This document shows, piece by piece, positions 8,412 to 53,716 of a DNA stretch of 64,000 bases. The DNA comes from Thermodesulfobacteriota bacterium. Its GTDB lineage: Bacteria > Desulfobacterota_D > UBA1144 > Nemesobacterales > UBA2774. Under the pieces are notes generated by a model. It worked only from the letters and a program-made list of their open reading frames with translations. It was not told the origin of the DNA and did no database searches. The translations under genes were made by a program, and so were the position numbers. The stretch is from NCBI GenBank assembly GCA_965216785.1, contig OZ244197.1, forward strand, positions 506,041 to 570,040, in the 5' to 3' direction. Every line of letters begins with the position of its first letter. Position 1 is the first letter of the stretch.

Positions 8412-8441
8412 CCTCCTCCATTATATTTTATCCAGTTTAAC

Positions 8442-11315: not shown

Positions 11316-12679
11316 TTAATCGCCTCCACTATCTCTTCCCCGTAGGTCCAGACGTTCCCGGCGCCGAGCGTCAGCACAGTGTCCCCCGATTCTATTGCTT
11401 CAAGAACAGCCCTCGCAACACTTTGGCTTCCGTTAATATAGGTAACATCCTCATGACCCGACTCTTTAATTGCCTCAAAGAGCCTCTGAGAGCTCACCCC
11501 CTCGATCGGGTCTTCACTCGCAGCGTAAATATCCAGTAAAAATAGCTTGTCCGCCTGCAGAAGAACCTGAACGAATTCATCGAACAGCAGACTTGTACGG
11601 GAATACCTGTGGGGCTGAAACATCACGACAACCCTCCCCGCACCGGTCTCCTTTATCGCCTCTATGGTAACTTCTATTTCCCGTGGGTGATGAGCATAGT
11701 CGTCTACTACCGTTATCCCGCCCGAGCTCCCCTTAATCTCCAGCCTTCTGCCTATCCCTTTAAATTTCGACAGTCCCTCTTTCACATGCTCAAAACTCAT
11801 TCCAAGCTCCATACCTACGGCAATTGCAGCAAGCGCATTCTGAGCAACATGTCTGCCGGGGGAGTGGATTTTAATATTCCCCAATACAGTATCTTCCTGC
11901 ACTACAGTAAACTCGGTCTCAAAGCCGTGAATTTTTACGTCTTGAGCTCTGAGCTCGGCATCCGGGCTAAACCCGTACGTAACTAACCTTTTCTGATAGT
12001 CCTTGGCGATGGAGCTTACCCTCGGGCAGTCCACACATAATACGGACAGGCCGTAGAACGGTATTTTATTCATAAAGGAAGTGAACGTCCCAACCAATTC
12101 CTCCATATCTTTGTAATGATCCATGTGCTCTTCATCTATGTTGGTAAGTACGGAAATTACCGGAGATAAAAGCATAAAAGACCCGTCGCTCTCATCGGCC
12201 TCGACTACCATAAAGCTGCCTTCTCCGAGCCTGGCATTCGTGCCTAGGGTCTGAACCTTGCCTCCGACAACTATAGTCGGGTCGAGCCCCCCGTAGGAGA
12301 GCACAGATTCTATCATCGATGTAGTCGTGGTTTTTCCATGGCTCCCGGCAACTGCGATACCGTATCGGAGCCTCATGAGCTCGGCCAGCATCTGCGCCCT
12401 CGGGATTACTGGGATGCCCAGAGAATGAGCCTCCGCCACCTCGGGGTTGTCCTGTCTCACTGCCGAGGAAATCACAACTACATCAGTGTCACGCACGTTT
12501 TCCGCCTCGTGTCCTATATGGATGCGGGCACCGAGCCCAATGAGCCGCTTTACCGTTTCAGACTCCTTCAGATCAGACCCCGTAACCGTATAGCCCATAT
12601 TGATCAGTACTTCCGCGATGCCGCTCATGCCGATACCGCCAATCCCAACAAAATGTAGACGTTTTATCTTTCCGTACAC
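11312..12679 (-). CDS. murC: UDP-N-acetylmuramate--L-alanine ligase
   Basis: Mur ligase motifs HFVGIGGIGMSGIA and GSHGKTTTTSM. Confidence 0.95.
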   Translation of the reverse strand: MYGKIKRLHFVGIGGIGMSGIAEVLINMGYTVTGSDLKESETVKRLIGLGARIHIGHEAENVRDTDVVVISSAVRQDNPEVAEAHSLGIPVIPRAQMLAELMRLRYGIAVAGSHGKTTTTSMIESVLSYGGLDPTIVVGGKVQTLGTNARLGEGSFMVVEADESDGSFMLLSPVISVLTNIDEEHMDHYKDMEELVGTFTSFMNKIPFYGLSVLCVDCPRVSSIAKDYQKRLVTYGFSPDAELRAQDVKIHGFETEFTVVQEDTVLGNIKIHSPGRHVAQNALAAIAVGMELGMSFEHVKEGLSKFKGIGRRLEIKGSSGGITVVDDYAHHPREIEVTIEAIKETGAGRVVVMFQPHRYSRTSLLFDEFVQVLLQADKLFLLDIYAASEDPIEGVSSQRLFEAIKESGHEDVTYINGSQSVARAVLEAIESGDTVLTLGAGNVWTYGEEIVEAIK

Positions 12680-13749
12680 CAGTTCACTCCGCTAAGTTTA
12701 TATATTTCGTCAACAATGTGAGGCGCGGCTCCGGGTTTTCCAAGCGCGCGCGATCTCACTGCCATTTCTTCCAGTTTGTTTTTATCCTTTAAAACTTGAA
12801 GCGCTTGAGCCAGATTTTCCGGCGTCGCCTCTTTATCTTCTATCAGTAACGCCGCCCCCGAAGCTTCTAGAGCCTTTGCATTCTCGAGCTGATGGTTATG
12901 CGTCGCATACGGAAACGGTATTAACAGCGAGGGCTTTCCAAGCGCCGTAATCTCTGCAACGGTTCCTGCGCCGGCTCTTCCTATCACAAAATCACTCCTC
13001 GCATACGCTGTGGCCATATCGTCTATAAACGTAAGAACCTCAGCGCTGATATTGTTCTTATTGTAGAAATCCTGAACATCCTTAAGATCATTTTCGCCTG
13101 TTTGATGAATCACATGGAGACCACTGATTCCGCTCCGGGATAGCGCTTCGGGAACCGAGCTGTTAAGCCTCTTCGCTCCCTGGCTTCCTCCGAACACAAG
13201 ACATACAAACGAGCGCCCCTGCTCCTTTTCGCCTTTGTAAGTCAAAATGTCTTTTCTGACAGGATTTCCTGTAACAACTATTTTATCTTTATCGAAAAAT
13301 TTTTCACACCCTTCAAACGTGCTGAATATCTTTTTTGCAAATTTACTCAAGATGCGGTTAGTAACCCCGGGCACGGAATTCTGCTCGCAAACGGCAGTCG
13401 GCAGCCTCAATATCGAGGCTGACAGCACTACAGGACCTGACACATATCCACCTACGCCGAGTACTACATCTGGTTTGAAGCTCCGAATAACCGAAACTGA
13501 CTCGACAATGCCGACAGCTGCTGAAAAAACTCCGGAAACCCTTTTAAATATTCCTTTTCCCACAATACCACCCGAACTAATATGTTTTATCTCATAACCC
13601 CTCTGAGCGACCAATTTATTTTCCAATCCGCTCCTTGTTCCCACAAATAAAACCTCATTCCCAGGGTCCCTATTTAATATCTCCTCGGCAATAGAGATTG
13701 CCGGGAACACGTGGCCCCCGGTGCCTCCGCCTGCAATTATGACCTTCAT
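12664..13749 (-). CDS. murG: Undecaprenyldiphospho-muramoylpentapeptide beta-N-acetylglucosaminyltransferase
   Basis: GT28 family, MKVIIAGGGTGGHVFPAISIAEE N-terminus. Confidence 0.95.
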   Translation of the reverse strand: MKVIIAGGGTGGHVFPAISIAEEILNRDPGNEVLFVGTRSGLENKLVAQRGYEIKHISSGGIVGKGIFKRVSGVFSAAVGIVESVSVIRSFKPDVVLGVGGYVSGPVVLSASILRLPTAVCEQNSVPGVTNRILSKFAKKIFSTFEGCEKFFDKDKIVVTGNPVRKDILTYKGEKEQGRSFVCLVFGGSQGAKRLNSSVPEALSRSGISGLHVIHQTGENDLKDVQDFYNKNNISAEVLTFIDDMATAYARSDFVIGRAGAGTVAEITALGKPSLLIPFPYATHNHQLENAKALEASGAALLIEDKEATPENLAQALQVLKDKNKLEEMAVRSRALGKPGAAPHIVDEIYKLSGVNWCTER

Positions 13750-14891
13750 TTTATTCCTGATCTAGATACGTTGAGTATTATTCCTACAGCCGCAAGTGTG
13801 GTTACAAGTGAGGTGCCGCCATAGCTAATGAACGGTAGTGTGAGACCTTTAGTGGGGAAAAGTCCGACAGCGACAGCCATGTTAATACCGGCCTGAAGAG
13901 TGATCAGCATAATACAGCCAAATACTAAATAGCATCCGAAAAGATCCGGCGCCCTGAGAGACACCCTCAAACTTCTAATCAATAGAACAGCAAATCCGAT
14001 TATTACTAGCACTATGCCTATGAAGCCAAGCTCTTCACCAATTATGGAGAAAATAAAATCCGTATGCGCCTGAGGAAGGAAGAAGAGCTTCTGAGTACTG
14101 TCCCCGAGCCCGGCGCCGTAGATGCCGCCCATAGCGAAAGCGATGAACGATTGTATAGCCTGATAACCCGATCCCAGCGGGTCCTGCCAAGGGTCGAGGA
14201 ACGAGGTTACCCTCTTCATCCTATAACCCTTCGTTACGACCGCGAGTACCATGAATATTATCGAAACAAGCCCTACGGGGATCATGTACTTTAATTTCAC
14301 ATCGCCAATGAACATCATACCGAATAACACCACCAGCACAGTGGTTGCCGTGCCGAAATCGGGCTCTAAAAGTATTAAGACTATATACACTCCCGCAATC
14401 ATTATGTGGGAGGCGAATCCGACTACGAAATTATCCAGTTTATCCCGCTTTTTTGTAAGGGAATGTGCTAGATACAGAACTAATATATACTTTGCGATTT
14501 CTGAAGGTTGGAAGGTGAATATACCTAGATCAATCCATCTCTGCGCTCCGCCCACCTGCTTTCCGATCCCAGGCACCAGGACGAGCACCAGCATCACTAG
14601 CCCCACAAGGTATGCGGGGTAGACAAGCTTTCTTAAGTGTCTGTAATCAAATAACATCAGCAAAACCATTGAGGTTAAACCCATTAAGAGATAAATGCCG
14701 TGACGCTTCAGAAAGTAGTGGGTATCCCCGTACATCTCAAGCGAATATACGGAGCTTGTGCTGTAAACCATCAGCACGCCCATCGAAGTCAGAAATAGAG
14801 CGGACAGGACAACGCCTATGTCGTAACTGTTTCCCTCAACTGTATCGAATATTTTCAACAATTTCCTTGAATCTCCTTCCTCTGTCTTCAT
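13746..14891 (-). CDS. ftsW: Peptidoglycan glycosyltransferase FtsW (SEDS family); start uncertain, the track ORF extends to 15032
   Basis: Multi-TM SEDS protein. The longest ORF overlaps murD by about 200 nt. The internal ATG at 14889-14891 (MKTEEGDSRK...) reduces the overlap to 56 nt and is more plausible. Confidence 0.85.
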   Translation of the reverse strand: MKTEEGDSRKLLKIFDTVEGNSYDIGVVLSALFLTSMGVLMVYSTSSVYSLEMYGDTHYFLKRHGIYLLMGLTSMVLLMLFDYRHLRKLVYPAYLVGLVMLVLVLVPGIGKQVGGAQRWIDLGIFTFQPSEIAKYILVLYLAHSLTKKRDKLDNFVVGFASHIMIAGVYIVLILLEPDFGTATTVLVVLFGMMFIGDVKLKYMIPVGLVSIIFMVLAVVTKGYRMKRVTSFLDPWQDPLGSGYQAIQSFIAFAMGGIYGAGLGDSTQKLFFLPQAHTDFIFSIIGEELGFIGIVLVIIGFAVLLIRSLRVSLRAPDLFGCYLVFGCIMLITLQAGINMAVAVGLFPTKGLTLPFISYGGTSLVTTLAAVGIILNVSRSGIK

Positions 14892-16173
14892 ATGATTTAA
14901 ACATATCAAAACTCGAGCAAGCGGGTGAAAAAAGTACCGAGTCCCGGGGTTCCATATTATCCAGCGCGCTTTGCACCGCACCTTTAAGTGAATCTGAAAG
15001 TATGGACCTGACACTCCCGCCAAGCTCTTCACTCATCCTTTGCCTTGCCTCTCCGATTAATACCAGCACTTTTACCTTTTCATTGACTATGTTTTTTAGC
15101 GCATCATAGCTTACTCCCTTGTCCTTTCCGCCCGCGATCAGGATCACTGGAGCCTTTGTGCTCTCAAGCGCGCTCAGCGTAGCGCCCGGGCTCGTGGATT
15201 TAGAGTCGTTATAGAAGTAAGCCCCCCTGATCTCCCCCAGATACTCGTTTCTATGGGGAAGCGGGTCAAACTCGATTACCGCCTTTCTTATTTGCGCGGG
15301 CTCACAGCCAAGAGCGCTCGCCCCTGCTATAGCCGCCATAATATTGTCTATGTTATGGCGTCCTCTGAGCTTCATCCCGCTTAACTCATACATCTCACTG
15401 CCGTAGCGGACACAGCACCCGTTATACGATACAGCGTTTTCAGATAGAGCGTCACCGAAGGGGATTTTTGTTGCACTCACCTGGGATAAGCGTTTATTTA
15501 TCTCCTCGTCATCCGACTTGTAGATAAATATGTCGTCGCTCCCCTGGTTCGCAGCGATCTTCATTTTTGACTCTATGTACTCAGTGTAGCTTTCGTGATG
15601 GTCCAGGTGGTTTGGGGAGATATTGAGAACTACCGCTATATCCGGCCTGAACTCCGATACCCCCTGGAGCTGAAAACTGCTGAGCTCTAGCACCAATACG
15701 TCGTACTCGCTGTCTTTGCCCGCGATAGTTATTAGCGGAGTGCCTATATTCGCGCCCAGAAAAACTTTTTTTCCGCATGTTTTTAGTATCTCTGAAATCA
15801 GAGTGCAGGTAGTCGTCTTGCCGTTAGATCCGGTAACGGCAATTATGGGTTTGGTAATAAACCTTGACGCAAGCTCCACTTCGCTTATAACCTCGATCTC
15901 TTCCTCGATAGCTCTTTTGACCTCTGGGGTCGCAAAAGGAACTCCGGGGCTCAGCACAATAAGCTCAGGCCACAAAAAGCTCTCGACCGTGTGCCCGCCG
16001 GACTCTACCTCTATAGCCCTAGCGCCAAGCATTTCGATCTCGTTTACCAGCTTTTCAGGAGGCGACATATCGCTCACCCTGACTTGGGCGCCTCTTTCCC
16101 GCAAAAAGAGCGCAGTTTCCAAACCTGTTTTTCCAAGTCCGACAACAAGTACTTTTTTATCTTTCAAGTCCAT
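14836..16173 (-). CDS. murD: UDP-N-acetylmuramoylalanine--D-glutamate ligase
   Basis: VLVVGLGKTGLETALFL N-terminus and GSNGKTTT P-loop. Confidence 0.95.
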   Translation of the reverse strand: MDLKDKKVLVVGLGKTGLETALFLRERGAQVRVSDMSPPEKLVNEIEMLGARAIEVESGGHTVESFLWPELIVLSPGVPFATPEVKRAIEEEIEVISEVELASRFITKPIIAVTGSNGKTTTCTLISEILKTCGKKVFLGANIGTPLITIAGKDSEYDVLVLELSSFQLQGVSEFRPDIAVVLNISPNHLDHHESYTEYIESKMKIAANQGSDDIFIYKSDDEEINKRLSQVSATKIPFGDALSENAVSYNGCCVRYGSEMYELSGMKLRGRHNIDNIMAAIAGASALGCEPAQIRKAVIEFDPLPHRNEYLGEIRGAYFYNDSKSTSPGATLSALESTKAPVILIAGGKDKGVSYDALKNIVNEKVKVLVLIGEARQRMSEELGGSVRSILSDSLKGAVQSALDNMEPRDSVLFSPACSSFDMFKSYEDRGRRFKEIVENIRYS

Positions 16174-16217
16174 ATTAAATCCCTGTTACTATCACAGCAA
16201 TGCCATAGTCCGAAAAG

Positions 16218-17327
16218 CTATCTCAATTTAAGCGTCGAAAGCGCGCAGAGCGCCAGTACAAGCGACACAATCCAAAACCTTATTACAACTTTTGATTCAG
16301 ACCACCCGCTAAGCTCGAAATGATGGTGAAGAGGGGCCATCTTAAATACCCTTTTCCCTGTGAGCTTGAATGAAATAACCTGGATTATCACTGACATCGC
16401 TTCGAGTACAAATATTCCTCCTACAATAATAAGTAGAAGCTCCTGTTTTATTATAAGCGCCACCGAGCCTATTGCCGCCCCGAGCGCGAGAGATCCCACG
16501 TCCCCCATAAATACCTCAGCCGGGTGAGAGTTGTACCACAGAAACCCAAGACACGCGCCGCCGACAGCGGCCATAAACACGGCTAGTTCCCCTGCCCCCT
16601 GAATGTTAGGTATCTGCAGGTATCTAGAAAACACCACGTTCCCGGCAAGATAAGCGAAAATAATATATGTAGCCGCCGCGACAGCTATAGAGCCTATCGC
16701 GAGACCGTCCAAGCCGTCGGTCAGGTTGACGCCGTTTGACGCGCCCACTACTACTATTAATGCGAAGACTACATAGAGCCAGCCCATGTGAATCACAGCC
16801 TGTTTGAAGAACGGCAATACAACAGAAGTAAACGGCAGGTTCTGAACCTTCTCCGCGCTCACAGCCATAGAGAAGCCATTCATGTAGCTTACGACCAGAA
16901 GTACGAAAAGGAAGCCGAACACAAGCTGGAGCGATAATTTTAAGCGTCCGCTCATTCCCTTTCCTTTGGAAAATTTTAGCCAGTCGTCTATAAATCCGAT
17001 AAGAGCGTAGCTAAGCGTGAACAGAAGAACGTACCAGATTACGAGACTTGTAAGATTAACCCAGAGTAATGTTGATACTAATACCGCCACCACTATAAAG
17101 GCCCCGCCCATCGTGGGAGTACCGGCTTTCGAATGGTGGCTTTCAGGGCCGTCGTCCCTTATGCTTTCTTTAAACTGTCTCTTTTGTAGAAACCTTATAA
17201 ATACCCCGCCCAAAATTATGCTTATAAGAAACGCCGTTACACCAGCCCCTAGCGAGCGGAAAGTAATGTATTTAAACACATTGAAGAGAATAAAGTCTCC
17301 TTTATATAGATAAAGAAGATGTAACAT
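16218..17327 (-). CDS. mraY: Phospho-N-acetylmuramoyl-pentapeptide transferase
   Basis: 10-TM protein with MraY signature KxGTPTMGG and DDxxK. Confidence 0.95.
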   Translation of the reverse strand: MLHLLYLYKGDFILFNVFKYITFRSLGAGVTAFLISIILGGVFIRFLQKRQFKESIRDDGPESHHSKAGTPTMGGAFIVVAVLVSTLLWVNLTSLVIWYVLLFTLSYALIGFIDDWLKFSKGKGMSGRLKLSLQLVFGFLFVLLVVSYMNGFSMAVSAEKVQNLPFTSVVLPFFKQAVIHMGWLYVVFALIVVVGASNGVNLTDGLDGLAIGSIAVAAATYIIFAYLAGNVVFSRYLQIPNIQGAGELAVFMAAVGGACLGFLWYNSHPAEVFMGDVGSLALGAAIGSVALIIKQELLLIIVGGIFVLEAMSVIIQVISFKLTGKRVFKMAPLHHHFELSGWSESKVVIRFWIVSLVLALCALSTLKLR

Positions 17328-17341
17328 CCAGTAAGCGCTCC

Positions 17342-18703
17342 TTAACTCAATTTTTTAATTACTTCTTCCATCCGCATGCCGCGCGATCCCTTAACCAACA
17401 CCAAATCGCCCTCGCACGCATAACTTGTAAGAGCAGACGCTGCTTCTTCGTGAGTGGCCGCGTGTACGCCCTCGGTCCCGTTTGAAAGCGAGTCCAGCAC
17501 GGCGGCTCCGAAATTACCGTATGTGATTACGTAATCTACTCCTGCTGAAGATAGGTACTCCCCTATCCCTTTGTGCTCGGACAGAGCGGCTTCGCCAAGC
17601 TCAAGCATATCACCTACTACTGCTACCGCTCGACCGCCGCCTTTCAGGCGCATTAGCTCATCTATAGCCTTTCTCATGGAGTCGGGATTTGCATTGTAAG
17701 CGTCATTTATGACCTTAAAACCCTGCGGCACGTCGCTCACCTCGAGCCTCTGTTGCACGGGCCTGAACTTCTCGAGGCCCTCTCTAATCTCATCAGCCAT
17801 GCATCCAAGCCCATAGGCAATCCCCGCTGCGCACAGAGCGTTCATAACGTTGTGAACTCCGATGGTGTGAAGTGTGACGGGAAATCCCTCACCCGCGATG
17901 CTCATATAGAATTTAATTCCGGTGAAGCCCTTTTCCTCTATCGAGTCTCCCGTGATAAATGAGCCTTTGGACTCTATACCGTATGTAATTTTTCGGCAGT
18001 CCGCTTCATCGGCTATATGCTGCACCCTATCATCATCTGCGTTCACGACAAATACACTGTTCTTACCAAACCCCTCGACTATCTCCGCCTTTGCTTTAGC
18101 CACCCCTTCTATACCGCCGAGTTTTTCCAGGTGAGCCCTACCAATATTTGTTATGGCCCCCACATCAGGCCGCGCGATCTGAGACAGCCTACTTATCTCA
18201 CCGAACTCGTTCATACCAAGCTCGACTACAGCCATCTCATAACTATCGTCAAGTTCAAGAAGCGTCAGCGGAAGTCCGATAAGATTATTAAAATTACCCG
18301 TATTCTTAAGAGTTCTATAATTTTGCGACACTATACTCCATGTCATTTCTTTCGTGGTAGTTTTTCCGTTTGAGCCCGTAATTGCGGCAAGCTCTATATC
18401 GCTCAACGAGCTTCTCCAATTCATGGCAAGGTCACCGAGCGCTCCTAGGGTAGATCCGACCTGCACCAGTCTTGCGTTTTGTATTAAGTTCTCCGGGACC
18501 CTCTCCACAACCGCGGCTGACGCACCTTTTTGGAAAGCCTCTTCGATAAATTTGTGCCCGTCAAAGTTCTCACCCCTAAGGGCAAAAAACACATCACCCG
18601 GGCTTATAGTCCTGGAATCGGTTGAAACGCCCTTTACTGATCCCGCGTCCTCGCCAGAGACAAGCTTGCCCTTTGTTGCTTTGAGTAAAAAGCTAAGCTC
18701 CAA
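17342..18703 (-). CDS. murF: UDP-N-acetylmuramoyl-tripeptide--D-alanyl-D-alanine ligase
   Basis: Mur ligase, AITGSNGKTTTKEM. Confidence 0.93.
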   Translation of the reverse strand: MELSFLLKATKGKLVSGEDAGSVKGVSTDSRTISPGDVFFALRGENFDGHKFIEEAFQKGASAAVVERVPENLIQNARLVQVGSTLGALGDLAMNWRSSLSDIELAAITGSNGKTTTKEMTWSIVSQNYRTLKNTGNFNNLIGLPLTLLELDDSYEMAVVELGMNEFGEISRLSQIARPDVGAITNIGRAHLEKLGGIEGVAKAKAEIVEGFGKNSVFVVNADDDRVQHIADEADCRKITYGIESKGSFITGDSIEEKGFTGIKFYMSIAGEGFPVTLHTIGVHNVMNALCAAGIAYGLGCMADEIREGLEKFRPVQQRLEVSDVPQGFKVINDAYNANPDSMRKAIDELMRLKGGGRAVAVVGDMLELGEAALSEHKGIGEYLSSAGVDYVITYGNFGAAVLDSLSNGTEGVHAATHEEAASALTSYACEGDLVLVKGSRGMRMEEVIKKLS

Positions 18704-18724
18704 AACTACCTCCGTAATTACAAT

Positions 18725-20215
18725 CTAATTAGCTCGATCCCTTAGCGCATCGCCCGCGATAATCCTGTCGTCAAAGGGATATTTTTTCGTTCCTAAAATC
18801 TGATAATCCTCGTGCCCCTTTCCGGCAATGAGCACGGTGTCACCTTTCCGTGCAACGCTAATCGCACGAAGGATCGCCTCTTTTCTATCCGAAACCCTGA
18901 AGTAAGGTTTCTCTCTACCTGCGCCTTCAAGCACTCCCTCTTCAATATCGTCTATTATCTTTTCCGGAGATTCGGTACGGGGGTTATCGGATGTCACTAA
19001 TAGAATGTCTGAAAGCTCTTTACCAATCAATCCCATTTTAGGACGTTTTGTTCTGTCTCTGTCACCGCCGCAGCCGAATACCAGTATAAGATTTCCCGAG
19101 GTCAGAGGTCTTGCCGCCCTGAGCACGTTTTCAAGCGCATCAGGCGTGTGCGCATAGTCTACCAGCACTTTTATTCCCAGCGTGTTTTCCAGGCTCTCCA
19201 AACGCCCCGGTATCACTTCCGCACCCGATAGCCCTTTCTCGATGCTATCTATAGAGGTGCCAAGGGATATGGCCGTAGCTGTAGCCGCGAGTAAATTTGA
19301 GAGGTTGTGGGCCCCGTATAGCTTAGAATTAATATTCAGCGTGCCGGCAGGTGTTTTCACCCGGGCGGAAATACCTCTTTCTGTAATCTCCGAGCTCTCG
19401 GCATACACTGAAGCGCTTTGGTCGTCGGCAGAATACGTTACCACTTCTCCCGCTGCGTCTTTTATTATGTCATCCCCGTATGGATCATCAAGATTTATTA
19501 TGGAGAACTTTCTTTCCTTCTCGCTTGCTTTCAGAATATCCGTAAATAGAGCCTTCTTTGAATTTAAATAGTTCTCGATGGTCCCATGATAGTCCAAGTG
19601 GTCCTGGGTCAGATTAGTGAATACGGCTGCATCAAAATGGCACCCCAGAACTCTTTTTTTATCAAGAGCGTGCGAAGAGACTTCCATCGCCGCAATCTCT
19701 ACTCCTGAATCTCTCATTTCTCTAAACATCCTCATTAAATCCAAAGACTCGGGCGTTGTCATAAGCGATTCCGTTTTATTTTCGCCGTAGCGGTAATCAA
19801 TGGTACCCAAAACCGCAGAGTTAAGCCTGTCTTGTCTCCATATGGACTCGAGCAGATAAGTAATGGTAGTTTTTCCGTTTGTGCCGGTAATTCCAACAAG
19901 CGAGAGCTCTTTTGTGGGGTGAGCGTAGAAATTAGCCGAAACACCCGCAAGCGCCGCTCTTGAGTCCGGAACCTCTATTACTGTCACTCCCTTATATACC
20001 GATTCGGGAGCCCTTTCGACCATTAGTGCCGAAGCGCCGTTTGCAACAGCGGATTCTATGTACTTATGGCCGTCTGTCTTCTCACCAATTAGTGCGACAA
20101 ATAAAAATTCTTTCTCTACTTTATTCGAATCAATTGATATACCGCTAATATTTATTTCGCCCGTGCCTGTGCGTTTAGTTACCTGGATTCTTTCTAATAA
20201 ATCACTCAGAATCAT
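18725..20215 (-). CDS. murE: UDP-N-acetylmuramoyl-L-alanyl-D-glutamate--2,6-diaminopimelate ligase
   Basis: Mur ligase, GITGTNGKTTITYL and DYAHTPDALENVL. Confidence 0.93.
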   Translation of the reverse strand: MILSDLLERIQVTKRTGTGEINISGISIDSNKVEKEFLFVALIGEKTDGHKYIESAVANGASALMVERAPESVYKGVTVIEVPDSRAALAGVSANFYAHPTKELSLVGITGTNGKTTITYLLESIWRQDRLNSAVLGTIDYRYGENKTESLMTTPESLDLMRMFREMRDSGVEIAAMEVSSHALDKKRVLGCHFDAAVFTNLTQDHLDYHGTIENYLNSKKALFTDILKASEKERKFSIINLDDPYGDDIIKDAAGEVVTYSADDQSASVYAESSEITERGISARVKTPAGTLNINSKLYGAHNLSNLLAATATAISLGTSIDSIEKGLSGAEVIPGRLESLENTLGIKVLVDYAHTPDALENVLRAARPLTSGNLILVFGCGGDRDRTKRPKMGLIGKELSDILLVTSDNPRTESPEKIIDDIEEGVLEGAGREKPYFRVSDRKEAILRAISVARKGDTVLIAGKGHEDYQILGTKKYPFDDRIIAGDALRDRAN

Positions 20216-22137
20216 ATTTTCGGCTGCAGCTCAATCGAACAAACCATTCCCTCTTGAATGAAATCACCTGGTGAAGGGTCCTGGTCCGTTACATAGCCGC
20301 TCCCCTTTACTTCTACTTTCACACCTTCCGCCTCTGACCACTTAAGAATATCTCTCACACTCATACCGCTTAAGTCGGGCATGATTTTCGTACCCGCGTA
20401 TACTTTATCGGGTGAGACGCCCATATGGAATAATACTTTTTCCGCTATCTCCCTAAATATAGGTGCTGCGACCGATCCCCCGTGCGTCTTGTTCCTGGGG
20501 GCTTCAACAACAACCGCCATAGCTAGCTTGGGGTCGTCCGTGGGTGCTATTCCGATAAAAGATGCTATATAGCGGTCTTTGTAGTAACCGCCGTTTCTGG
20601 GATCGGGTATCTGAGCAGTACCTGTTTTACCGCCGACTGAAAATCCACTAATCTGGGCTCTTTTACCTGTCCCCTCTTCCACAACCTTCTCCATTATTAA
20701 TTTCATTTGATAAGTCGTATCGTAGGACAATACCCGCGCATGCACCTCGGGCTTTCTTTCTCTAATAATAGTTCCGTCAGAGCTCATAATTTTTTTGATA
20801 ATATAAGGCTCCATCAGATATCCGCCGTTCGCGATCGCCGAGAGCGCCGTGACGAGCTGTAAAGAAGTTACAGATATACCCTGACCAAATGAGATTGTGG
20901 CAAGCTCTATTTTCCCCCACTTCTTAGGGGCCAAGACTTTTCCACCGGACTCACCGGGGAGATCTATTCCGGTTTTATCACCGAAGCCGAACTTCTTTAG
21001 ATAGCTGTGGTATTTATCTCTCCCGAGGAGCTCTCCGATCTTAGATGCCCCAATATTACTGGAGACCCTAACTACGTCTGCGAACGTTATAGTCCCGTAG
21101 GGTTTTACATCTTTTATTACTTTCGCCCCTACCTTTCTTCTACCCATTTCACAGTCAAACAAAGAGTCGGGATTAGCCTTATTCTCCTCTAGCGCCGAAG
21201 CCGCCAGGAAGAGCTTCATAGTGGAGCCGGGCTCATACGTATACCAGATCGGCAGGTTTCTCCTGTTTGCCTCTGGGTATGTACCGTAGCTGTTGGGATC
21301 TATAAAGGGGTAAGAGGCCATAGCCAATACTTCTCCTGTCTCAGGATTCATTAGAATCGCCATACCCTTCTCGGCATTCATGGCTTCGATTCCCTCTTTA
21401 AGCTCCCTTTCCACAATGTGCTGGATCTGCGAGTCTATAGTCAGCACTATATCGTGTCCAGCGGTGTTCTCTTCATCAAAATCCTGTACAATGTCAGGAT
21501 TTTGAATGATTTTACGTCCGAAGGCGTCTCTTTTTAATATAATATTTCTGGGCGTGCCGATAAGAAGGTCATCGAATCGGTACTCTATCCCCTCGATTCC
21601 GTTCGAGTCAATATTTGTGAATCCCAGGACTTGTCCCAAAAGATGACCGTTCGGATAAATTCTCTTTGGCTCCTCGATAAAACCTACGCCCTCTAGATCC
21701 AACTCTTCGAGCGTCTCTGTTACATCAGGGTCGACTAGTCTCTTTAGCCAGACAAAGGACCTTTTTGACGATGCTCTCGAGAGCACGGTTTTCTGAGATA
21801 CATCAATATATTTTGATATTGTTTTTGATATGTCGACAGGGTTTGCTATATCTTTTGGGTTAACATATACAGATTTAACGTCCACATTTACGGCAAGCTC
21901 TTTTAAGTTTCGATCAAGAATCTTTCCCCTTCGGGGCAGGAGCTTTGAGCTTCCGTGGTGTTGCTTTTTCGCTATTTTAAATGCACGCGCTCTGTCCAGC
22001 ACCTGCAGCTCAAGCGCCTTGAACGATATAGAAGCAAAGAGCACAAGCAAGAGAAAGCCTACGATGGATACCCTCCATCTGGGCCTGTTCAGGTCTCTAC
22101 CGAGTGATATTCTTTTGGAATTTTTTTTCTTTTTCAT
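20212..22137 (-). CDS. ftsI: Peptidoglycan D,D-transpeptidase FtsI (PBP3-type class B penicillin-binding protein)
   Basis: N-terminal TM, PBP dimerisation domain, transpeptidase motifs STMK, SSN and KTGT. Confidence 0.93.
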   Translation of the reverse strand: MKKKKNSKRISLGRDLNRPRWRVSIVGFLLLVLFASISFKALELQVLDRARAFKIAKKQHHGSSKLLPRRGKILDRNLKELAVNVDVKSVYVNPKDIANPVDISKTISKYIDVSQKTVLSRASSKRSFVWLKRLVDPDVTETLEELDLEGVGFIEEPKRIYPNGHLLGQVLGFTNIDSNGIEGIEYRFDDLLIGTPRNIILKRDAFGRKIIQNPDIVQDFDEENTAGHDIVLTIDSQIQHIVERELKEGIEAMNAEKGMAILMNPETGEVLAMASYPFIDPNSYGTYPEANRRNLPIWYTYEPGSTMKLFLAASALEENKANPDSLFDCEMGRRKVGAKVIKDVKPYGTITFADVVRVSSNIGASKIGELLGRDKYHSYLKKFGFGDKTGIDLPGESGGKVLAPKKWGKIELATISFGQGISVTSLQLVTALSAIANGGYLMEPYIIKKIMSSDGTIIRERKPEVHARVLSYDTTYQMKLIMEKVVEEGTGKRAQISGFSVGGKTGTAQIPDPRNGGYYKDRYIASFIGIAPTDDPKLAMAVVVEAPRNKTHGGSVAAPIFREIAEKVLFHMGVSPDKVYAGTKIMPDLSGMSVRDILKWSEAEGVKVEVKGSGYVTDQDPSPGDFIQEGMVCSIELQPKI

Positions 22138-22475
22138 TCCATCTTATCACTAAGAATGTGTTTTTGCTCAATATATACAATGTCTTGCTGAGTAGGAAAC
22201 TTGAACCCCAACTCCATTGCCGTACCCTCAAGGCTATCGGCGGATATAGCTCTCATAAATTCCGACTTAAGCGTCTTATTCTCTTTTAGCAGCTCCTTGG
22301 CCTCTTTTTTGTTCCAGGAGATCTCATATCCTAGCCTTATGCCTTCAGCTTTAATCCTGAGATATCCAAGCGCCAATACTACTGAGAGCACAACTAGGAG
22401 CAGTAAGCCGCCAGATACCGCTTTCTTCGCTTTTTTTATTTTCTGTCTCGCACCTAAAGTGCCTGACTTAGCCAT
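22134..22475 (-). CDS. ftsL: Cell division protein FtsL-like (small bitopic coiled-coil protein)
   Basis: 113 aa, basic N-terminus, a single TM helix, then a coiled-coil. Canonical position between rsmH and ftsI. Confidence 0.7.
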   Translation of the reverse strand: MAKSGTLGARQKIKKAKKAVSGGLLLLVVLSVVLALGYLRIKAEGIRLGYEISWNKKEAKELLKENKTLKSEFMRAISADSLEGTAMELGFKFPTQQDIVYIEQKHILSDKME

Positions 22476-22477
22476 CT

Positions 22478-23437
22478 TTATATCCTCTCTCCTACTCTGA
22501 GCTTCGCGCTTCTCGCCCTCGGGTTATCCAGAATTTCGTCCTGCCCGGGCACTATGGGAGAGCGGGTGAGGATCTTTAATTCTCGTTCTTTTCCACAGCC
22601 GCATTCAGGCATTTCGGGAGGGCATACACATGGGTTAGATAAACGCTGAAATGCGCTCTTAACAAGCCTATCTTCAAGTGAATGAAAAGAAATTACAACG
22701 AGCCTCCCACCTGGTTTTAGCAACGAAATAGCTTTATCTAAAAACTCTTTTATATTGTCCAGCTCATTATTCACTGCGATCCTAAGCGCCTGAAATGTCT
22801 TGGTAGCAGGATGAATTCTAGCAGGATGAAACTTTTTCGGAATTGCCCCTGAAACTACTTTGGCAAGCTCTGCCGAGGTTTCGATAGGTTTCAGGTTCCT
22901 TGCCTCAACTATATGTTTGGCGATTTTCTTAGCCCACTTTTCCTCGCCGTATATCTTCAGGACTTTAGATATCTCATCAACACTCATCTCGTTCACCAGA
23001 TCATGCGCGGTAAAACGAAGCCTGGGATCCATTCTCATATCCAGCACTTCGTCTCTCATGAAGCTAAATCCCCGCTCGCTCGACTCAATCTGAAGAGAAG
23101 ACATCCCCAGATCCGCGACTATGCCGTCCACAAGATCTATGTCCAGGTCTTCCAGCACACTGTCTATTTCTGAAAAATTGCTGTTTCTCAGTACAATCTG
23201 GCTCTTATACTTTGAAAGTAGATCGGCCGAAATAGATATTGCTTCCTCATCCACATCAAGACCGATAACTCTGCATTTATATTCTGTATGTTCTAGTATT
23301 GCCTGCGTGTGACCGCCAAGACCGAGCGTGGCATCAACGTATATTCCCTCTCTATCGGTCACCAAGTAATCCGTAACCTCTTTTGTCATAACCGATTTAT
23401 GCATCGGCTTAGTCATGTCTAGTAGTGGGCTTTCCAT
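22478..23437 (-). CDS. rsmH: 16S rRNA (cytosine1402-N4)-methyltransferase RsmH/MraW; the track ORF extends to 23491
   Basis: SAM-MTase with HKSVMTKEV...GIYVDATLGLGGHTQAIL N-terminus. The longest ORF would overlap mraZ by 50 nt. An internal ATG near 23437 fits the RsmH N-terminus. Confidence 0.9.
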   Translation of the reverse strand: MESPLLDMTKPMHKSVMTKEVTDYLVTDREGIYVDATLGLGGHTQAILEHTEYKCRVIGLDVDEEAISISADLLSKYKSQIVLRNSNFSEIDSVLEDLDIDLVDGIVADLGMSSLQIESSERGFSFMRDEVLDMRMDPRLRFTAHDLVNEMSVDEISKVLKIYGEEKWAKKIAKHIVEARNLKPIETSAELAKVVSGAIPKKFHPARIHPATKTFQALRIAVNNELDNIKEFLDKAISLLKPGGRLVVISFHSLEDRLVKSAFQRLSNPCVCPPEMPECGCGKERELKILTRSPIVPGQDEILDNPRARSAKLRVGERI

Positions 23438-23441
23438 AGTT

Positions 23442-23888
23442 TTAGAGTCCTTGTCCGGCAAGTGTTTCTCTACTCTTTTTAAATTCTTCATAGGCGCGCT
23501 CTGACTGCTCGACTTCCCAAACTTCCTTAGACCATATCTCTATTCTGGTAAGCATACCTACCATTACAACATCTTTATTTATATGCGCATGGTTTCTGAG
23601 CGGTTGCGGTATGAGCACCCTCCCCTGACCGTCGAGCGGGCAGTCGACCGCCCCGCCCATAAGGTAGCGGAGAAATGATATAACCTCTTGTTTGAACTGA
23701 GGGAGCTCAGACACTTTACGCTCAATCTCGTTCCATTCCTTTAGAGGATACGCGACAAGGCATTTATCGAAGTTCGTTATTACAAAGGTCTCATCCCCGT
23801 ATTTTTCCTTACAGACTTCCCGGAATTTTGCGGGCATGCTCACTCTGCCTTTATCAGTCATTGTGTGCTCGTAACGTCCTCTGAACAT
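23442..23888 (-). CDS. mraZ: Transcriptional regulator MraZ
   Basis: MFRGRYEHTMTDKGRVSMPAKFRE and a second DxxGR repeat (PLDGQGRVLIP). First gene of the dcw cluster. Confidence 0.93.
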   Translation of the reverse strand: MFRGRYEHTMTDKGRVSMPAKFREVCKEKYGDETFVITNFDKCLVAYPLKEWNEIERKVSELPQFKQEVISFLRYLMGGAVDCPLDGQGRVLIPQPLRNHAHINKDVVMVGMLTRIEIWSKEVWEVEQSERAYEEFKKSRETLAGQGL

Positions 23889-26214: not shown

Positions 26215-28140
26215 CTACCGATTGGCGCAGAAGCCGAAATTCTGCGTGCCTCCCGGCTGAACAGTATTGTTCCAGGACACACCTTCGGCTGTAACGATAC
26301 CGCCGCTCTGTGTATATGTCGCGTTCCACATATTCCTTACAGTCCCGTCAATCGAAAACGATACTATCCAGTCTTGAGGTGAAGAGCCCGAATTAGACAC
26401 CGTTACCTGAGCGCAGTAACCCGATCCCCAGTCGTCATTGATGGCAACGGTTGCGGTAACATCCCCTCCGCCGGGAGGCGCATTAAACTCGTCGTCATCA
26501 TTTGCGCTGCCGCACCCCGGGTCCGCGGGATAGTCCGTAAGACCGTCACTGTCGTTGTCTATACCGTCAGAGCATGCGAACACAGGCGGGGGCGGTGTCG
26601 GCGCAGGAGTCGGAACAGGAGTAGGCTCCGGAGGTGCAGCGCGGTCCGCACAGAAGCCGAAATCCACCGAATTCCCCGGCGCTACCGTATTATTCCAGGA
26701 CACTCCCTCTACCGTAACTTCATCCCCAGACTGTGAATACTCGGCATTCCACATATCCTTGACCGTTCCCTCAATACTAAAGCTAACCACCCAATCCTCT
26801 GTGCTGCTGCCGTTATTCGTAACCACTACCTGGGCGCAGTAACCCGATCCCCAGTCGTCGTTGATGGAGACAGAGGCTGTGACATCCCCTCCGCCGGGAG
26901 GCGCGTTAAACTCGTCATTGTCTGTTGCGGAGCTGCATCCCGGGTCGTCCGGATAATCTGTCAGACCGTCGCTGTCATTGTCGATGCCGTCAGAGCATGC
27001 GGCTACAGGAGGAGGCGGTGTAGGGGTGGGAGGAGGCACATTGCCGTCCATCAGCTGGCTCAGCAGCGCCACTTTATCGTCCCAAACACTCTGCCAATCG
27101 TCCTGTAGTATCCCGCCCGTGTCCCCGCTGTTCGGGTTCCACGACCAGTAAAAGAAGTTAGTCATCCCCTTCCCATCCATCCAGTTTATCAGGGCGTCCT
27201 GCCAAGTCTTGTCTCTTGGGTCACCGCCGTTTCCGTACCTGCCGCCGAACTCACCGATGATGACCGCATAGCCCCTATCCACAAGATAGCCGAAATGCGT
27301 TTCCCAGATTGCGGGCATATTTCCCGGAAATCCGGAGTCGTTGAAGTAGGGCTGAACAAAAACGTCCGGTCCGTAAACGTGCGGGCTTAGTACGAGCTTA
27401 TCCTCGGGAATATTGAGCGGAAAGCAAGAGAATGGTTCCAGATTTCCGCCCCACCAGTGCTGAATGGAGCCCGAGCACGTAGGGTTTTCCTGAACCCCCT
27501 GGACGAAGATCAAGATATTAGAGTTAACCGCGAGAACCTCAGAAGCCGCAAGCTCGGCTGCCCGTTTCCAGTCGGTTGCCGCATCTCCGGTGCCCCAGGT
27601 CGCGGGGCCGTGAGGCTCGTTTTTTATATCTATGGCAAAGAAACTCTCTATATTGCTATATCTGTCCGCCAAGAATGTCAGGTCGTCTATCCAGTCCTGC
27701 TCGGAATAGCTCCCCGTGTACCATAACTCTTCGATAGTCTGACAGTCCGAAGTATGGTGATCGAGGAGTATGTAAAACCCTTGCCTGTCGAGCTCCTCTA
27801 CCACCTTGTCCATGATATCCAGAGACCCGAGTCCCTGAAGATCGGAGTTTGCCGAATAGTTTATGCTCGACGGTGTTACGTTGTCCAGAGTTCTGGGACA
27901 GAAAGGAAGTCTTATCGCCGTAAAGCCGAGCCCCTTAATCTGCTGAATCATATCCTTCCAGTTCCGGGCCCACAAACCGTGTACTACGTTATTATTGGTC
28001 TCAAAACCAAACCAGCTCACGCCGTACAGGTTTACTTCCTGAGCCTGCTCGTTAAATACCTTGCCGTCCTCGACGTAATAAGCCCGGACTGGCAACGTTA
28101 TACAAACCAATACAAAAAACGCTGTAAGTACTAAGCGCAT
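26215..28140 (-). CDS. Secreted glycoside hydrolase family 5 endoglucanase with two C-terminal CBM2 carbohydrate-binding modules
   Basis: Signal peptide MRLVLTAFFVLVCITLPVRA. GH5 catalytic motifs NEP (acid/base) and IGEFG (nucleophile). Two Pro/Thr-rich linkers each followed by a CBM2-like module (W..GY.AQV.V.N.G....W.V.F...G......WNA.Y.QSG....GVSWN....PG....FGFC). Confidence 0.88.
   Translation of the reverse strand: MRLVLTAFFVLVCITLPVRAYYVEDGKVFNEQAQEVNLYGVSWFGFETNNNVVHGLWARNWKDMIQQIKGLGFTAIRLPFCPRTLDNVTPSSINYSANSDLQGLGSLDIMDKVVEELDRQGFYILLDHHTSDCQTIEELWYTGSYSEQDWIDDLTFLADRYSNIESFFAIDIKNEPHGPATWGTGDAATDWKRAAELAASEVLAVNSNILIFVQGVQENPTCSGSIQHWWGGNLEPFSCFPLNIPEDKLVLSPHVYGPDVFVQPYFNDSGFPGNMPAIWETHFGYLVDRGYAVIIGEFGGRYGNGGDPRDKTWQDALINWMDGKGMTNFFYWSWNPNSGDTGGILQDDWQSVWDDKVALLSQLMDGNVPPPTPTPPPPVAACSDGIDNDSDGLTDYPDDPGCSSATDNDEFNAPPGGGDVTASVSINDDWGSGYCAQVVVTNNGSSTEDWVVSFSIEGTVKDMWNAEYSQSGDEVTVEGVSWNNTVAPGNSVDFGFCADRAAPPEPTPVPTPAPTPPPPVFACSDGIDNDSDGLTDYPADPGCGSANDDDEFNAPPGGGDVTATVAINDDWGSGYCAQVTVSNSGSSPQDWIVSFSIDGTVRNMWNATYTQSGGIVTAEGVSWNNTVQPGGTQNFGFCANR
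26218..27000. repeat. About 420-bp tandem direct repeat (about 80% nt identity) encoding the duplicated linker + Ca-loop + CBM2 module of the GH5 gene
   Basis: Long shared nucleotide strings are visible directly, e.g. gcgcagtaacccgatccccagtcgtc...cccctccgccgggaggcgc and gaccgtc(a/g)ctgtc(g/a)ttgtc(t/g)ataccgtcagagcatgcg. Confidence 0.8.
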
Positions 28141-28506
28141 ATGTTATCCCCCTTGCTAAGGATTTATTTGACCTCTTTAGAACCCATGTTTAATAACTAT
28201 AGCCGCGGTTTCCCGGACCGCGTCGAGAAGCAGAAAGCATTTGTTATCCGACACGTGTTCCCATAGGTCAGCTCTATAGATGGGCAATTTGAATGCCATA
28301 AAGCCGGAGTTTATAAAATCAAGTGATTTCAGACGCATAGGCAAATGATTGGTTAGAGAAATAATATATATCGAGATAATATGTGTAATAAAGCACACTC
28401 AGGTTGTGTCTATTAATACAAGAGAGCATATTGCCAATATTAATAATAGTGATTCTGTTGAAGGAGATTCTTGACTCTTTATCGGGTTATAAAGTAATAT
28501 CAGATT

Positions 28507-38627: not shown

Positions 38628-39401
38628 GTGAACCCGGGCTTAAAGCTAATAGGAGCTATTATGCTACTACTAATATCGACTTCTTATTCAAGCACCCTCT
38701 CAACAGCCGAAGAACATCAGGATTCTCTCTTTCAGACCGCTATCCTGCAGTCTCTTGTAGATGGAGTGTACGACGGAGACTTAACTGTAGGGGAGTTAAA
38801 AGAGCACGGCGACTTCGGAGTGGGAACATATAACCGGCTTAACGGAGAGATGGTGGCTCTTGACGGCGTCTTTTACCAGGTTAAGTCAGACGGCAAAATA
38901 GAAATCCCGGATGACTCCACAAAAACCCCCTTCGCGATAGTAACATTTTTTGATACCAATGAAACTATGAAGCCCCATAGCAAGATGAGCTGCGAAGAAC
39001 TTAAAAGCTATATTGAAAACGCCCTTCCCGCTGAAAACATATTCTACGCAATAAAAGTTCACGGGAGTTTTGAATATATGAAGACCAGGAGCGTACCCGA
39101 GCAAACAGCGCCGTATCCGCCCCTTAGCGAAGTGGTTAAAATAGAGTCAAAATTCGAATTCAAGAACATTACCGGAACCATCGTAGGACTATGGTTGCCC
39201 GAGTATATGGACAATATAAATCAGCCAGGATTCCATTTTCATTTCATATCGGACGACAAAAAATCAGGGGGACATGTGCTGGACTGTAAAACGGAGGATG
39301 TAGTAATAGAGATAGATTACATGAGAGAGCTCGATCTCGATCTTCCAGACACGGAAGGCTTTAATAACGCTGAGCTTACGGAGCCAAAAAAGGAAAATTA
39401 G
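38628..39401 (+). CDS. Alpha-acetolactate decarboxylase (AlsD/BudA family), with N-terminal signal peptide
   Basis: LFQTAILQSLVDGVYDGDLTVGELKEHGDFGVGTYNRLNGEMVALDGVFYQ matches the ALDC N-terminal core. Hydrophobic leader LIGAIMLLLISTSYSS. Confidence 0.8.
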   Translation: MNPGLKLIGAIMLLLISTSYSSTLSTAEEHQDSLFQTAILQSLVDGVYDGDLTVGELKEHGDFGVGTYNRLNGEMVALDGVFYQVKSDGKIEIPDDSTKTPFAIVTFFDTNETMKPHSKMSCEELKSYIENALPAENIFYAIKVHGSFEYMKTRSVPEQTAPYPPLSEVVKIESKFEFKNITGTIVGLWLPEYMDNINQPGFHFHFISDDKKSGGHVLDCKTEDVVIEIDYMRELDLDLPDTEGFNNAELTEPKKEN

Positions 39402-42556: not shown

Positions 42557-42666
42557 AGCAACTTCCACACATGCTTTACATCTAATATCAAAGTATCGGT
42601 CGTTCACAAAAAGTTTTGATATCTTTTGACATTTATATTATAAATGTGATGGAGGGAAAATATCCA

Positions 42667-53308: not shown

Positions 53309-53716
53309 ATAGGTTAAGAATTTTGCAAGTAGCGTGCCATACACAAATTAGTCTGTAAAATATCCATAAGCCCCCTATATCACTATATAATCTTGTACAG
53401 ACTAGTGAGTACCTAATGCGCAATTGTGACGAAAAACGTCAATATGCGACTTTAAATTCACATTTTGTAAGGGAAACACTATTTTCACTATTATGGTTTG
53501 ACTAAAATATCGATCTTATTTAAAGGTTTTTCTGCCACGATAAAAGAAGTTTAAACTAGCGTAAAGTTAACCATTAAGACGGAAGAATTAATAATTCGGA
53601 TAAAATCACGTATCAAGTGTCTAATTTTTAAAACTTCGTGCTTAAAAGTGAGGCACATTTTTTTATTAACATTTCATAAGATGCCTATTTCATTGATTGA
53701 AATGCGTTTTGATAAG

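Follow-up and report, generated by a model that had tools for sequence, protein, structure and literature searches.

A 64,000-nt stretch of a Thermodesulfobacteriota genome (contig OZ244197.1; referred to below as the window) carries a gene for a modular cellulase amid housekeeping genes. The locus raises the questions of what such an enzyme would do, how the acidic elements in its linkers would work, and whether the gene and its repeated binding unit are recent arrivals. The open reading frame (ORF), at 26215 to 28140 on the minus strand, has its ATG at 28140 and its stop codon at 26215 to 26217 and encodes 641 amino acids, with exactly the limits given in a preliminary description made from the DNA letters; all residue and coordinate numbers of the cellulase refer to this ORF. 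The reading that we favor, with a probability of roughly 0.72, is that the product would be an exported endoglucanase of glycoside hydrolase family 5 (GH5), tethered to its substrate by two family 2 carbohydrate-binding modules (CBM2) and provided with calcium-stabilized knots in its linkers, and that the gene would be under sigma-54 control and an old, vertically inherited resident of its lineage. Domain identities, catalytic residues (by alignment), synteny, the age of the duplication, and the conservation of the linker module and of the promoter were computed in the analysis.

Catalytic domain and carbohydrate-binding modules

The catalytic domain matches the Pfam Cellulase/GH5 model PF00150 over residues 40 to 338 (E value, 6e-48; 164.1 bits versus a cut-off of 23.5) and contains the sequences NEP at residue 174 and GEFG at residue 296. 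The best phmmer match in the Protein Data Bank (PDB) is the Xanthomonas campestris endoglucanase EngXCA (4TUF; E value, 7e-146), followed in both phmmer and Foldseek searches by the Pyrococcus horikoshii endocellulase EGPh, Acidothermus E1, and the metagenomic GH5 enzyme 8FC0. In an AlphaFold2 model computed from 82 family sequences (mean predicted local distance difference test score [pLDDT], 88), the catalytic domain superimposes on 4TUF with a TM score of 0.96, a root mean square deviation of 1.4 A, and 60% identity (Foldseek). E175 and E297 align with E201 and E342 of EGPh, the positions mutated in structures 3QHN and 3QHM. The GH5 endoglucanase with NEP and GEFG glutamates of the preliminary description is thus upheld by a Pfam score far above the cut-off and by the alignment.

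We take 4TUF, EGPh, and E1 to be members of GH5 subfamily 1 (GH5_1), and the cellulase is a predicted GH5 subfamily-1-like endoglucanase of the EngXCA type. In addition to the 60% identical catalytic domain with the same NEP and GEFG glutamates, it shares with EngXCA a signal peptide and a Pro/Thr linker. The two differ in that the Xanthomonas and Acidovorax homologues scanned have one CBM2 and no acidic module, whereas in the window protein the unit is doubled and such a module precedes each CBM2; the sigma-54-type-looking promoter of the window gene is a further difference from EngXCA. The N terminus of the cellulase has a basic start, a hydrophobic core, and V-R-A ahead of the mature start YYVE, which is kept in relatives, and residues 2 to 14 are modeled as a helix. 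This looks like a signal peptide, suggesting export by Sec. A lipoprotein reading was rejected because there is no lipobox ahead of Cys13.

A homologue search returned 3805 proteins, many of which are named cellulase or endoglucanase by their sources. Across a genome scan (L008 to L087), the EngXCA-type GH5 domain was widespread in lineages without known cellulose degradation. The carriers include Halothiobacillus, Thiomargarita, Achromatium, Methylococcaceae, many filamentous cyanobacteria, and WWE3/Saccharibacteria, and their C-terminal modules differ.

The CBM_2 model PF00553 matches the window protein twice (E value, 1.5e-39; 134.9 bits versus a cut-off of 24), CBM49 reaches just 32.5 bits, and the PDB matches of the C-terminal modules are all CBM2 modules. 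The earlier assignment of these modules to CBM2, and not to another family of carbohydrate-binding modules (CBMs), therefore stands. By phmmer, module 2 matches the Cex CBM2a (1EXG) with an E value of 1e-11, and its residues W571, W605, and W623 align with W17, W54, and W72 of Cex, which we understand from the CBM2a literature to form the cellulose-binding face. W430, W464, and W482 of module 1 occupy the same positions, and both Trp triads vary little or not at all in the family. The likeness to Cex CBM2a thus extends to the Pfam match and the three surface Trp residues, but the window modules lack the last strand and the canonical terminal Cys. The CBM_2 match covers profile positions 2 to 86 of 101, and the protein ends 3 residues after C638. 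The disulfide that canonically joins the two ends is replaced by an internal pair of conserved Cys residues (GYC...FGFC; C435/C497 and C576/C638). The FGFCAxx ending is common to the Xanthomonas, Acidovorax, and Halothiobacillus homologues, and the binding module is thus of the EngXCA type. Both C-terminal modules are predicted CBM2a-type modules of a shortened CBM2 variant.

As a Sec-exported retaining endo-beta-1,4-glucanase with a (beta/alpha)8 barrel, the enzyme would use E175 (NEP) as the acid/base and E297 (GEFG) as the nucleophile. Its two CBM2a-type modules, each with a three-Trp face, would tether it to crystalline cellulose or a similar insoluble beta-glycan, and the tandem arrangement would give a higher avidity than a single module. 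It is conceivable, if unlikely, that the enzyme instead remodels the beta-glucan of its own cell, of a host, or of a neighbor (biofilm cellulose, a sheath, or a sponge or algal matrix) and does not serve plant or algal foraging. Such a role would explain retention of the gene by methanotrophs, sulfur oxidizers, cyanobacteria, and a small-genome lineage, and many lineages that have the family are indeed not known to degrade cellulose. In addition, in Dadabacteria-type loci the gene always lies beside murJ and the division/cell-wall cluster, and a tight sigma-54-type control is suggested. However, the cellulase gene converges on murJ and diverges from the TPR gene on its other side and is therefore co-transcribed with neither, and no cellulose-synthase genes were found in the window or in the loci examined. 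The presence of CBM2a modules in tandem, with their Trp faces intact, is typical of enzymes that attack insoluble crystalline substrates, and those of the window protein point to a substrate of this kind. Moreover, the closest characterized relative, EngXCA, is a secreted plant-cell-wall enzyme.

Acidic modules in the linkers

Each CBM2 is preceded by a Cys-bracketed acidic loop, which is CSDGIDNDSDGLTDYPDDPGC in copy 1 (C382 to C402) and CSDGIDNDSDGLTDYPADPGC in copy 2 (C523 to C543). Copy 2 has an Ala in place of an Asp in the loop sequence given in the preliminary description. Conservation was counted over 133 distinct 21-residue family loops, in which several of the invariant positions were fixed by the search pattern. 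C1, D3, D6, D8, D10, D14, P16, and C21 were invariant, and N7, G11, Y/F15, D18 (131/133), and G20 were nearly so. The residue taken as EF-hand position 12 is variable (A51/D30/N21/S11 among the 133 loops); in the window, copy 1 has Asp and copy 2 has Ala there. The stretch after the loop, x-S-x-x-D-x-D-E, is also conserved, with D26 and E29 invariant, and the full unit is therefore a module of ~30 residues, more than a 12-residue loop (consensus, CxDGxDNDxDGxxD[YF]PxDPGCxSxxDxDE). Modules 1 and 2 are identical at 95% of their amino acids and 55% of their codons, which argues for purifying selection on the module and not for recency.

In the AlphaFold2 model, the modules have pLDDT values of 85 to 89 and no regular secondary structure, and the flanking segments are below 50. 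DSSP assigns coil to residues 384 to 419 and 525 to 560, save one 3-residue turn each, and finds no helix-loop-helix around the loops. The model suggests that modules and domains are arranged as beads on a string. The loops occur singly, and their number per homologue varies from 0 to 5: P0021 and P0101 have none, P0025 has one, and P0048 has up to five. Several methanotroph proteins have two or three tandem loops, and in P0108 they are replaced by an unrelated insert. The acidic module is a putative accessory linker element.

The NCBIfam model NF033662 ("acidic double-disulfide repeat") matches the whole protein, with both loops, at 53.1 bits versus a cut-off of 41. A three-loop segment of a homologue reaches 82.5 bits, and a single loop alone reaches 32.6 bits, which is below the cut-off. 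The window modules have two Cys residues per repeat and not the four implied by the name of the model; where double-disulfide relatives (teneurin and CDGxDNDCDG motifs) have Cys, the window modules have Ser- and Tyr396-type residues. The nearest Pfam model is PF11617 (Cu-binding_MopE, "putative metal-binding motif"), which scores 22.3 bits and thus stays below its gathering score of 27. A MopE-type copper site was rejected on the basis of this score and the lack of His/Trp ligands.

The core CxDxxDNDxDGLxDCxDPDC has been described as the teneurin cysteine-rich (C-rich) domain and has also been noted in a diatom endo-1,3-beta-glucosidase and in Volvox gametolysin (PMC3278476). The 1.5-A structure of the teneurin-4 C-rich domain (7PLP) contains three Ca2+ ions, for which E835, D840, D843, N844, D845, D847, D851, D854, and D856 and three backbone carbonyls are the ligands, as well as the disulfides C838-C857, C852-C863, and C858-C869 (i.e., 1-3, 2-5, and 4-6). 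Of its sites, two are similar to those of thrombospondin type 3 repeats and the third to the low-density lipoprotein receptor A module (PMC9058538). Aligned over 20 positions, the 7PLP sequence CGDSKDNDGDGLVDCMDPDC and the window loop share 12 residues, and the alignment requires a single insertion. D840, D843, N844, D845, D847, D851, and D854 of teneurin-4 correspond to D384, D387, N388, D389, D391, D395, and D399, respectively, and its disulfide C838-C857 corresponds to C382-C402. All of the side-chain Ca2+ ligands from D840 to D854 are thus kept, as is the pairing of the first Cys with the Cys 20 positions on. In contrast to teneurin-4, the window loops have a one-residue insertion (D-[YF]-P-x-D) before the last ligand, and their C-terminal part is the acidic tail xSxxDxDE and not a conotoxin-like Cys knot. 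A profile of the orthologues' 20-residue loops gave 7PLP as the top PDB match (E value, 1.3e-4; Cys to Cys, ungapped), with other teneurins next and the sole EF-hand protein listed at an E value of 2.7. With a 30-column loop profile, the only PDB matches were calmodulin loops at E values of at least 0.01 and 7PLP at 0.84, and fold searches with the isolated module returned no match. The teneurin C-rich/thrombospondin type 3 type of disulfide-closed loop would be the closest structural precedent and appears to fit better than an EF-hand. Calcium binding by the acidic module is likely.

In the proposed mechanism, each CBM2 would be attached through a flexible Pro/Thr linker that is broken by a ~30-residue acidic mini-domain, which would fold around one to three Ca2+ ions and be locked by its Cys-Cys disulfide. 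The mini-domain would serve as a rigid, protease-resistant linker knot like the teneurin C-rich domain and the thrombospondin type 3 repeats. In this mechanism, cellulase export, the substrate, calcium binding, the disulfides, and sigma-54 dependence are inferred. A farther-reaching proposal is that the module is a prokaryotic homologue of the teneurin C-rich domain that acts as a Ca2+-dependent switch in the linkers of carbohydrate-active enzymes (CAZymes) and that, together with sigma-54 control, the enzyme is a key regulated cellulose-attack factor of non-pelagic Dadabacteria. We regard this as rather improbable. If it were true, the module would be rigid at extracellular Ca2+ levels and floppy without Ca2+ and would set the spacing of the tandem CBM2 modules or keep the enzyme at the anionic cell surface, and non-pelagic Dadabacteria, so far not described as cellulolytic, would gain a key cellulose-attack factor.

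It is very unlikely that the loops are EF-hand- or dockerin-type modules docking the enzyme on a scaffold or surface partner, as in a cellulosome. Their pattern D-x-D-x-D-G-x-x-D-[FY]-P is in register with calmodulin EF-loop 2 (DADGDGTIDFPE), with a 13-residue match over loop positions 5 to 17 (E values, 0.002 to 0.1), and the Pfam models EF-hand_5/6/7 are among the weak matches (E values, 0.3 to 5.6). However, position 12, the bidentate EF-hand ligand, is not conserved, no entering or exiting helices are predicted, and the loop would be disulfide-closed and extracellular. No dockerin model matched in Pfam scans of the cellulase and the loops, which, being single and numbering 0 to 5 per protein, are unlike paired dockerin repeats, and the window genes and the related loci examined include no cohesin-like gene. 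The Dx[DN]xDG class of calcium loops binds calcium near-identically in many unrelated folds (PMC3123361). Both the window loop and calmodulin loop 2 belong to this general class, as does the loop of 7PLP. Of the wording "EF-hand/dockerin-like" in the preliminary description, "EF-hand-like" is acceptable for the loop pattern, in line with the weak calmodulin match, but membership in the EF-hand or dockerin family is not supported. The two Cys-bracketed acidic loops themselves, one before each CBM2, are as described there, and calcium binding by them is plausible.

A tandem-loop profile found 622 further proteins, mostly short secreted proteins or lipoproteins or fragments, with little domain context. 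Hundreds of short secreted proteins or lipoproteins (P0121 to P0240 type) are made solely of tandem CxDGxDNDGDGxxD[YF]PxDPGC repeats, none of them annotated by Pfam. Their sources are Kofleriaceae, Polyangiales, and other Myxococcota (some with MYXO-CTERM), Patescibacteria, and archaea.

Genomic slot and age of the duplicated unit

Six related loci (L001 to L005 and L007) encode proteins that are 61 to 87% identical to the window cellulase. Their sources are labeled Dadabacteria, Thermodesulfobacteriota, or "Deltaproteobacteria"; in the NCBI taxonomy, Candidatus Dadabacteria is a class of Thermodesulfobacteriota. All six have the gene in the same slot, with gcvTHP, band 7, recJ, aroQ, and TPR on one side and murJ, DUF4911, mraZ, rsmH, ftsL, ftsI, murE, murF, and mraY on the other. 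The synteny is identical in five of them, and L004 has one extra ORF between the cellulase gene and murJ. The Methylomagnum copy of the cellulase lies in an unrelated gene context. In the window, murJ is convergent with the cellulase gene across a 91-bp gap, and the TPR gene is divergent from it across 366 bp. Genes for type II dehydroquinase (aroQ), RecJ, and a band-7 protein lie beyond the TPR gene, and the division cluster mraZ-rsmH-ftsL-ftsI, of which Pfam confirms mraZ, rsmH, and ftsI, lies beyond murJ. The convergence with murJ and the housekeeping flanks reported previously (murJ, TPR, aroQ, and recJ) are thereby confirmed by Pfam.

The linker, loop, and CBM2 form a unit whose second copy follows in exact register 141 amino acids, or 423 nt, after the first. 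Of the previously noted recent ~420-bp tandem duplication, the repeat is therefore evident in the DNA, but its recency is not. Units 1 and 2 are identical at 79% of amino acids, 72% of nucleotides, and 53% of third codon positions, with a 226-nt stretch at 80%, and about 52% of codons are identical at conserved residues. The closest relative, P0001 at locus L001, is 87% identical overall. At the nucleotide level, identity to the corresponding unit of the window gene is 84% for unit 1 of P0001 and 84% for its unit 2, whereas the within-gene pairs are 72% (window) and 68% (P0001) identical. As the orthologous units are closer than the sister units, the duplication is older than the split of the two genomes, and this comparison showed no trace of recent gene conversion. 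Of the 3805 homologues, nearly all of the best 120 have two CBM2 modules, including methanotroph proteins at ~50% identity. In a neighbor-joining tree of CBM2 modules, 18/18 second modules of the Dadabacteria-type proteins formed one clade and 17/18 first modules another, with bootstrap values of <=6.5%, and the tree was not relied on. The tandem duplication appears to predate the diversification of the Dadabacteria lineage.

The GC content of the cellulase gene (0.542) and its GC content at third codon positions (GC3; 0.614) are both the highest among the 42 long window ORFs, the latter being ~1.9 standard deviations (SD) above the ORF mean of 0.514 (SD, 0.052). The high GC content at second codon positions (GC2) is due to a composition rich in Pro, Thr, Gly, Ala, and Trp. 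The GC3 of the cellulase gene tracks that of the host (0.37 to 0.79) and is 0.7 to 2.6 SD above the flanks in five loci. The preliminary description had proposed that the gene might have been horizontally acquired and had named an exact match in composition, together with conserved synteny in relatives, as what would argue against this. The synteny is conserved, but the composition does not match exactly, the cellulase gene lying 1.9 SD above the ORF mean. As a recent event, horizontal acquisition is contradicted by the slot, kept in six loci down to 61% identity, and by GC3, which follows the host.

In the L004 locus (10001 to 15077 of a 2.67-Mb contig), the cellulase GC3 is 0.416 versus 0.548 in the flanks, i.e., 4 SD lower, and the extra ORF encodes 1024 amino acids without a Pfam match. 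This slot may have undergone a later replacement or insertion. The family is spread across phyla, with members in Methylococcaceae, Acidovorax, Xanthomonas, Halothiobacillus, Thiomargarita, Patescibacteria, and cyanobacteria, and this spread implies ancient transfers between phyla. A recently acquired foreign cellulase with a recently duplicated binding unit is hardly credible: the peak GC and GC3 values, the low GC3 in L004, the same architecture at 45 to 55% identity in methanotrophs and other Gammaproteobacteria, and the catalytic relatives in many phyla (which imply ancient transfer) speak for it, but the shared slot, the host-tracking GC3, the compositional cause of the high GC2, and orthologous units closer than paralogous ones in both protein and DNA speak against it. 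The cellulase gene is best regarded as a probable old, vertically inherited resident of the non-pelagic Dadabacteria lineage.

Upstream region

A TGGCAC-N5-TTGC element upstream of the cellulase gene (Table 1) is conserved in sense orientation in the alignment of seven loci. We take this sequence to be the sigma-54 -24/-12 consensus. The exact pattern has 2 matches in the 64-kb window versus 0.09 expected. In 5/6 relatives (L001 to L004 and L007), the element is found at -95 to -163. No other strict match occurs at the locus in L002 to L004 and L007, and L001 fits only a relaxed pattern (TGGCCT). Transcription of the cellulase gene most likely starts from a sigma-54 promoter, which would therefore need an activator protein. 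A partly conserved block with TGT...ACA dyads, ~100 bp 5' of the -24 element, could be a candidate site for an enhancer-binding protein.

A promoter/terminator consensus scan gave nothing above shuffle expectation, with no intrinsic terminator in the 91-bp convergent gap between the cellulase gene and murJ. Rfam and tRNA scans of the whole window gave no match, and thus no known riboswitch was found upstream of the cellulase gene. The presumed untranslated leader of the cellulase mRNA contains a GC-rich hairpin, CGCGGTCCGGGAAACCGCG, at ~28203 to 28221 (minus strand), which is conserved in L001 and, in part, in L007.

A second, perfect sigma-54-type element, TGGCACGCTACTTGC, is located at 53325 to 53339 (minus strand), 17 nt 5' of the ORF at 51854 to 53308 (minus strand), which encodes an MshEN domain and a response-regulator receiver. 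This element lies in the lowest-GC stretch of the window (51 to 54 kb; GC content, 0.36 to 0.39), and the ORF with its element is divergent from the gene for glutamine synthetase (54170 to 55636).

Other features of the window

The division/cell-wall gene cluster, at 7329 to 23888 (minus strand), directly adjoins murJ and, in relatives, extends through murE, murF, mraY, and murD. Plus-strand shadow ORFs inside the cellulase gene were rejected as genes. The ORF at 42649 to 44652 (plus strand) encodes an unusual fusion protein of 667 amino acids, in which a Rieske 2Fe-2S domain at the N terminus is followed by the N, M, and C domains of a complete thiamine-pyrophosphate enzyme; an alpha-acetolactate decarboxylase gene is located nearby at 38661 to 39401.

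Table 1. Coordinates of the cellulase gene, its predicted domains, and upstream elements in the window
Feature	Position in window	Strand	Basis
Complete coding sequence, 641-amino-acid modular endoglucanase	26215..28140	-	ORF list, Pfam, homologues
Putative signal peptide, residues 1-20, MRLVLTAFFVLVCITLPVRA then YYVEDG	28081..28140	-	Inferred; read from sequence
GH5 catalytic (beta/alpha)8 domain, residues 27-363	27052..28062	-	phmmer and Foldseek versus 4TUF
Predicted acid/base E175 codon	27616-27618	-	Alignment with EGPh E201
Predicted nucleophile E297 codon	27250-27252	-	Alignment with EGPh E342
Pro/Thr linker 1, residues 367-381	26998..27042	-	Sequence; pLDDT <50 at 367-376
Acidic disulfide module 1 (predicted), residues 382-411, CSDGIDNDSDGLTDYPDDPGCSSATDNDEF	26908..26997	-	NF033662; family consensus; pLDDT 85-89; teneurin-4 pattern
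CBM2 module 1, residues 419-500; Trp 430/464/482; Cys 435/497	26641..26886	-	Pfam CBM_2 at residues 421-502; beta-strands in model
Pro/Thr linker 2, residues 501-522	26575..26640	-	Sequence; pLDDT <50 at 508-516
Acidic disulfide module 2 (predicted), residues 523-552, CSDGIDNDSDGLTDYPADPGCGSANDDDEF	26485..26574	-	NF033662 best stretch at residues 519-545
CBM2 module 2, residues 560-641; Trp 571/605/623; Cys 576/638; ends FGFCANR	26218..26463	-	phmmer versus 1EXG
Sigma-54-type -24/-12 element (putative), TGGCATTCAAATTGC, 143 bp 5' of ATG	28284..28298	-	Seven-locus upstream alignment; pattern count
Partly conserved block with TGT...ACA dyads	28382..28420	-	Seven-locus upstream alignment; sequence

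Discussion

Several results weigh against the account of a tethered, exported endoglucanase with calcium-knot linkers under sigma-54 control. The Xanthomonas and Acidovorax enzymes scanned have no acidic module; these enzymes and the loop-less P0021 and P0101 indicate that the module is dispensable for catalysis and binding. The position of D856 of teneurin-4 is Gly in the window loop, and two of the three teneurin-4 disulfides are absent. A profile of the window-type 21-residue loops matches 7PLP weakly (E value, 0.039; positions 1 to 14 only), no better than calmodulin loop 2. The sigma-54-type element is absent from L005, as it is from the methanotroph locus L006, and no rpoN or AAA+ activator turned up in the window ORFs scanned, no search having been aimed at either. 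Finally, many carriers of the family are not known cellulose degraders, which makes the natural substrate uncertain.

The architecture of the cellulase is already known: hundreds of database proteins share it and are annotated as cellulase, and the linker module is catalogued by NCBIfam. No study of this enzyme was found in the literature on Dadabacteria cellulase or methanotroph GH5/CBM2. Published Dadabacteria genomics tabulated GH5_1 and CBM2 counts without discussing them; by dbCAN, 5/48 Dadabacteria metagenome-assembled genomes, and none of the marine pelagic ones, have GH5_1 = 1 together with CBM2 = 2 (PMC8115339, Suppl. Table 4). Relative to the literature searched, the probable kinship of the module, with its single predicted disulfide, to the teneurin C-rich calcium domain is new, as are the module's putative role in CAZyme linkers, the conserved sigma-54-type promoter, and the fixed slot in non-pelagic Dadabacteria.

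For the organisms, these findings suggest that attack on beta-glucan or cellulose is a conserved trait of non-pelagic Dadabacteria. For the module, they suggest that a common extracellular NF033662-like repeat, present in hundreds of proteins from Myxococcota, Patescibacteria, archaea, and methanotrophs, is probably a calcium-binding mini-domain, for which a eukaryotic analogue of known structure exists.

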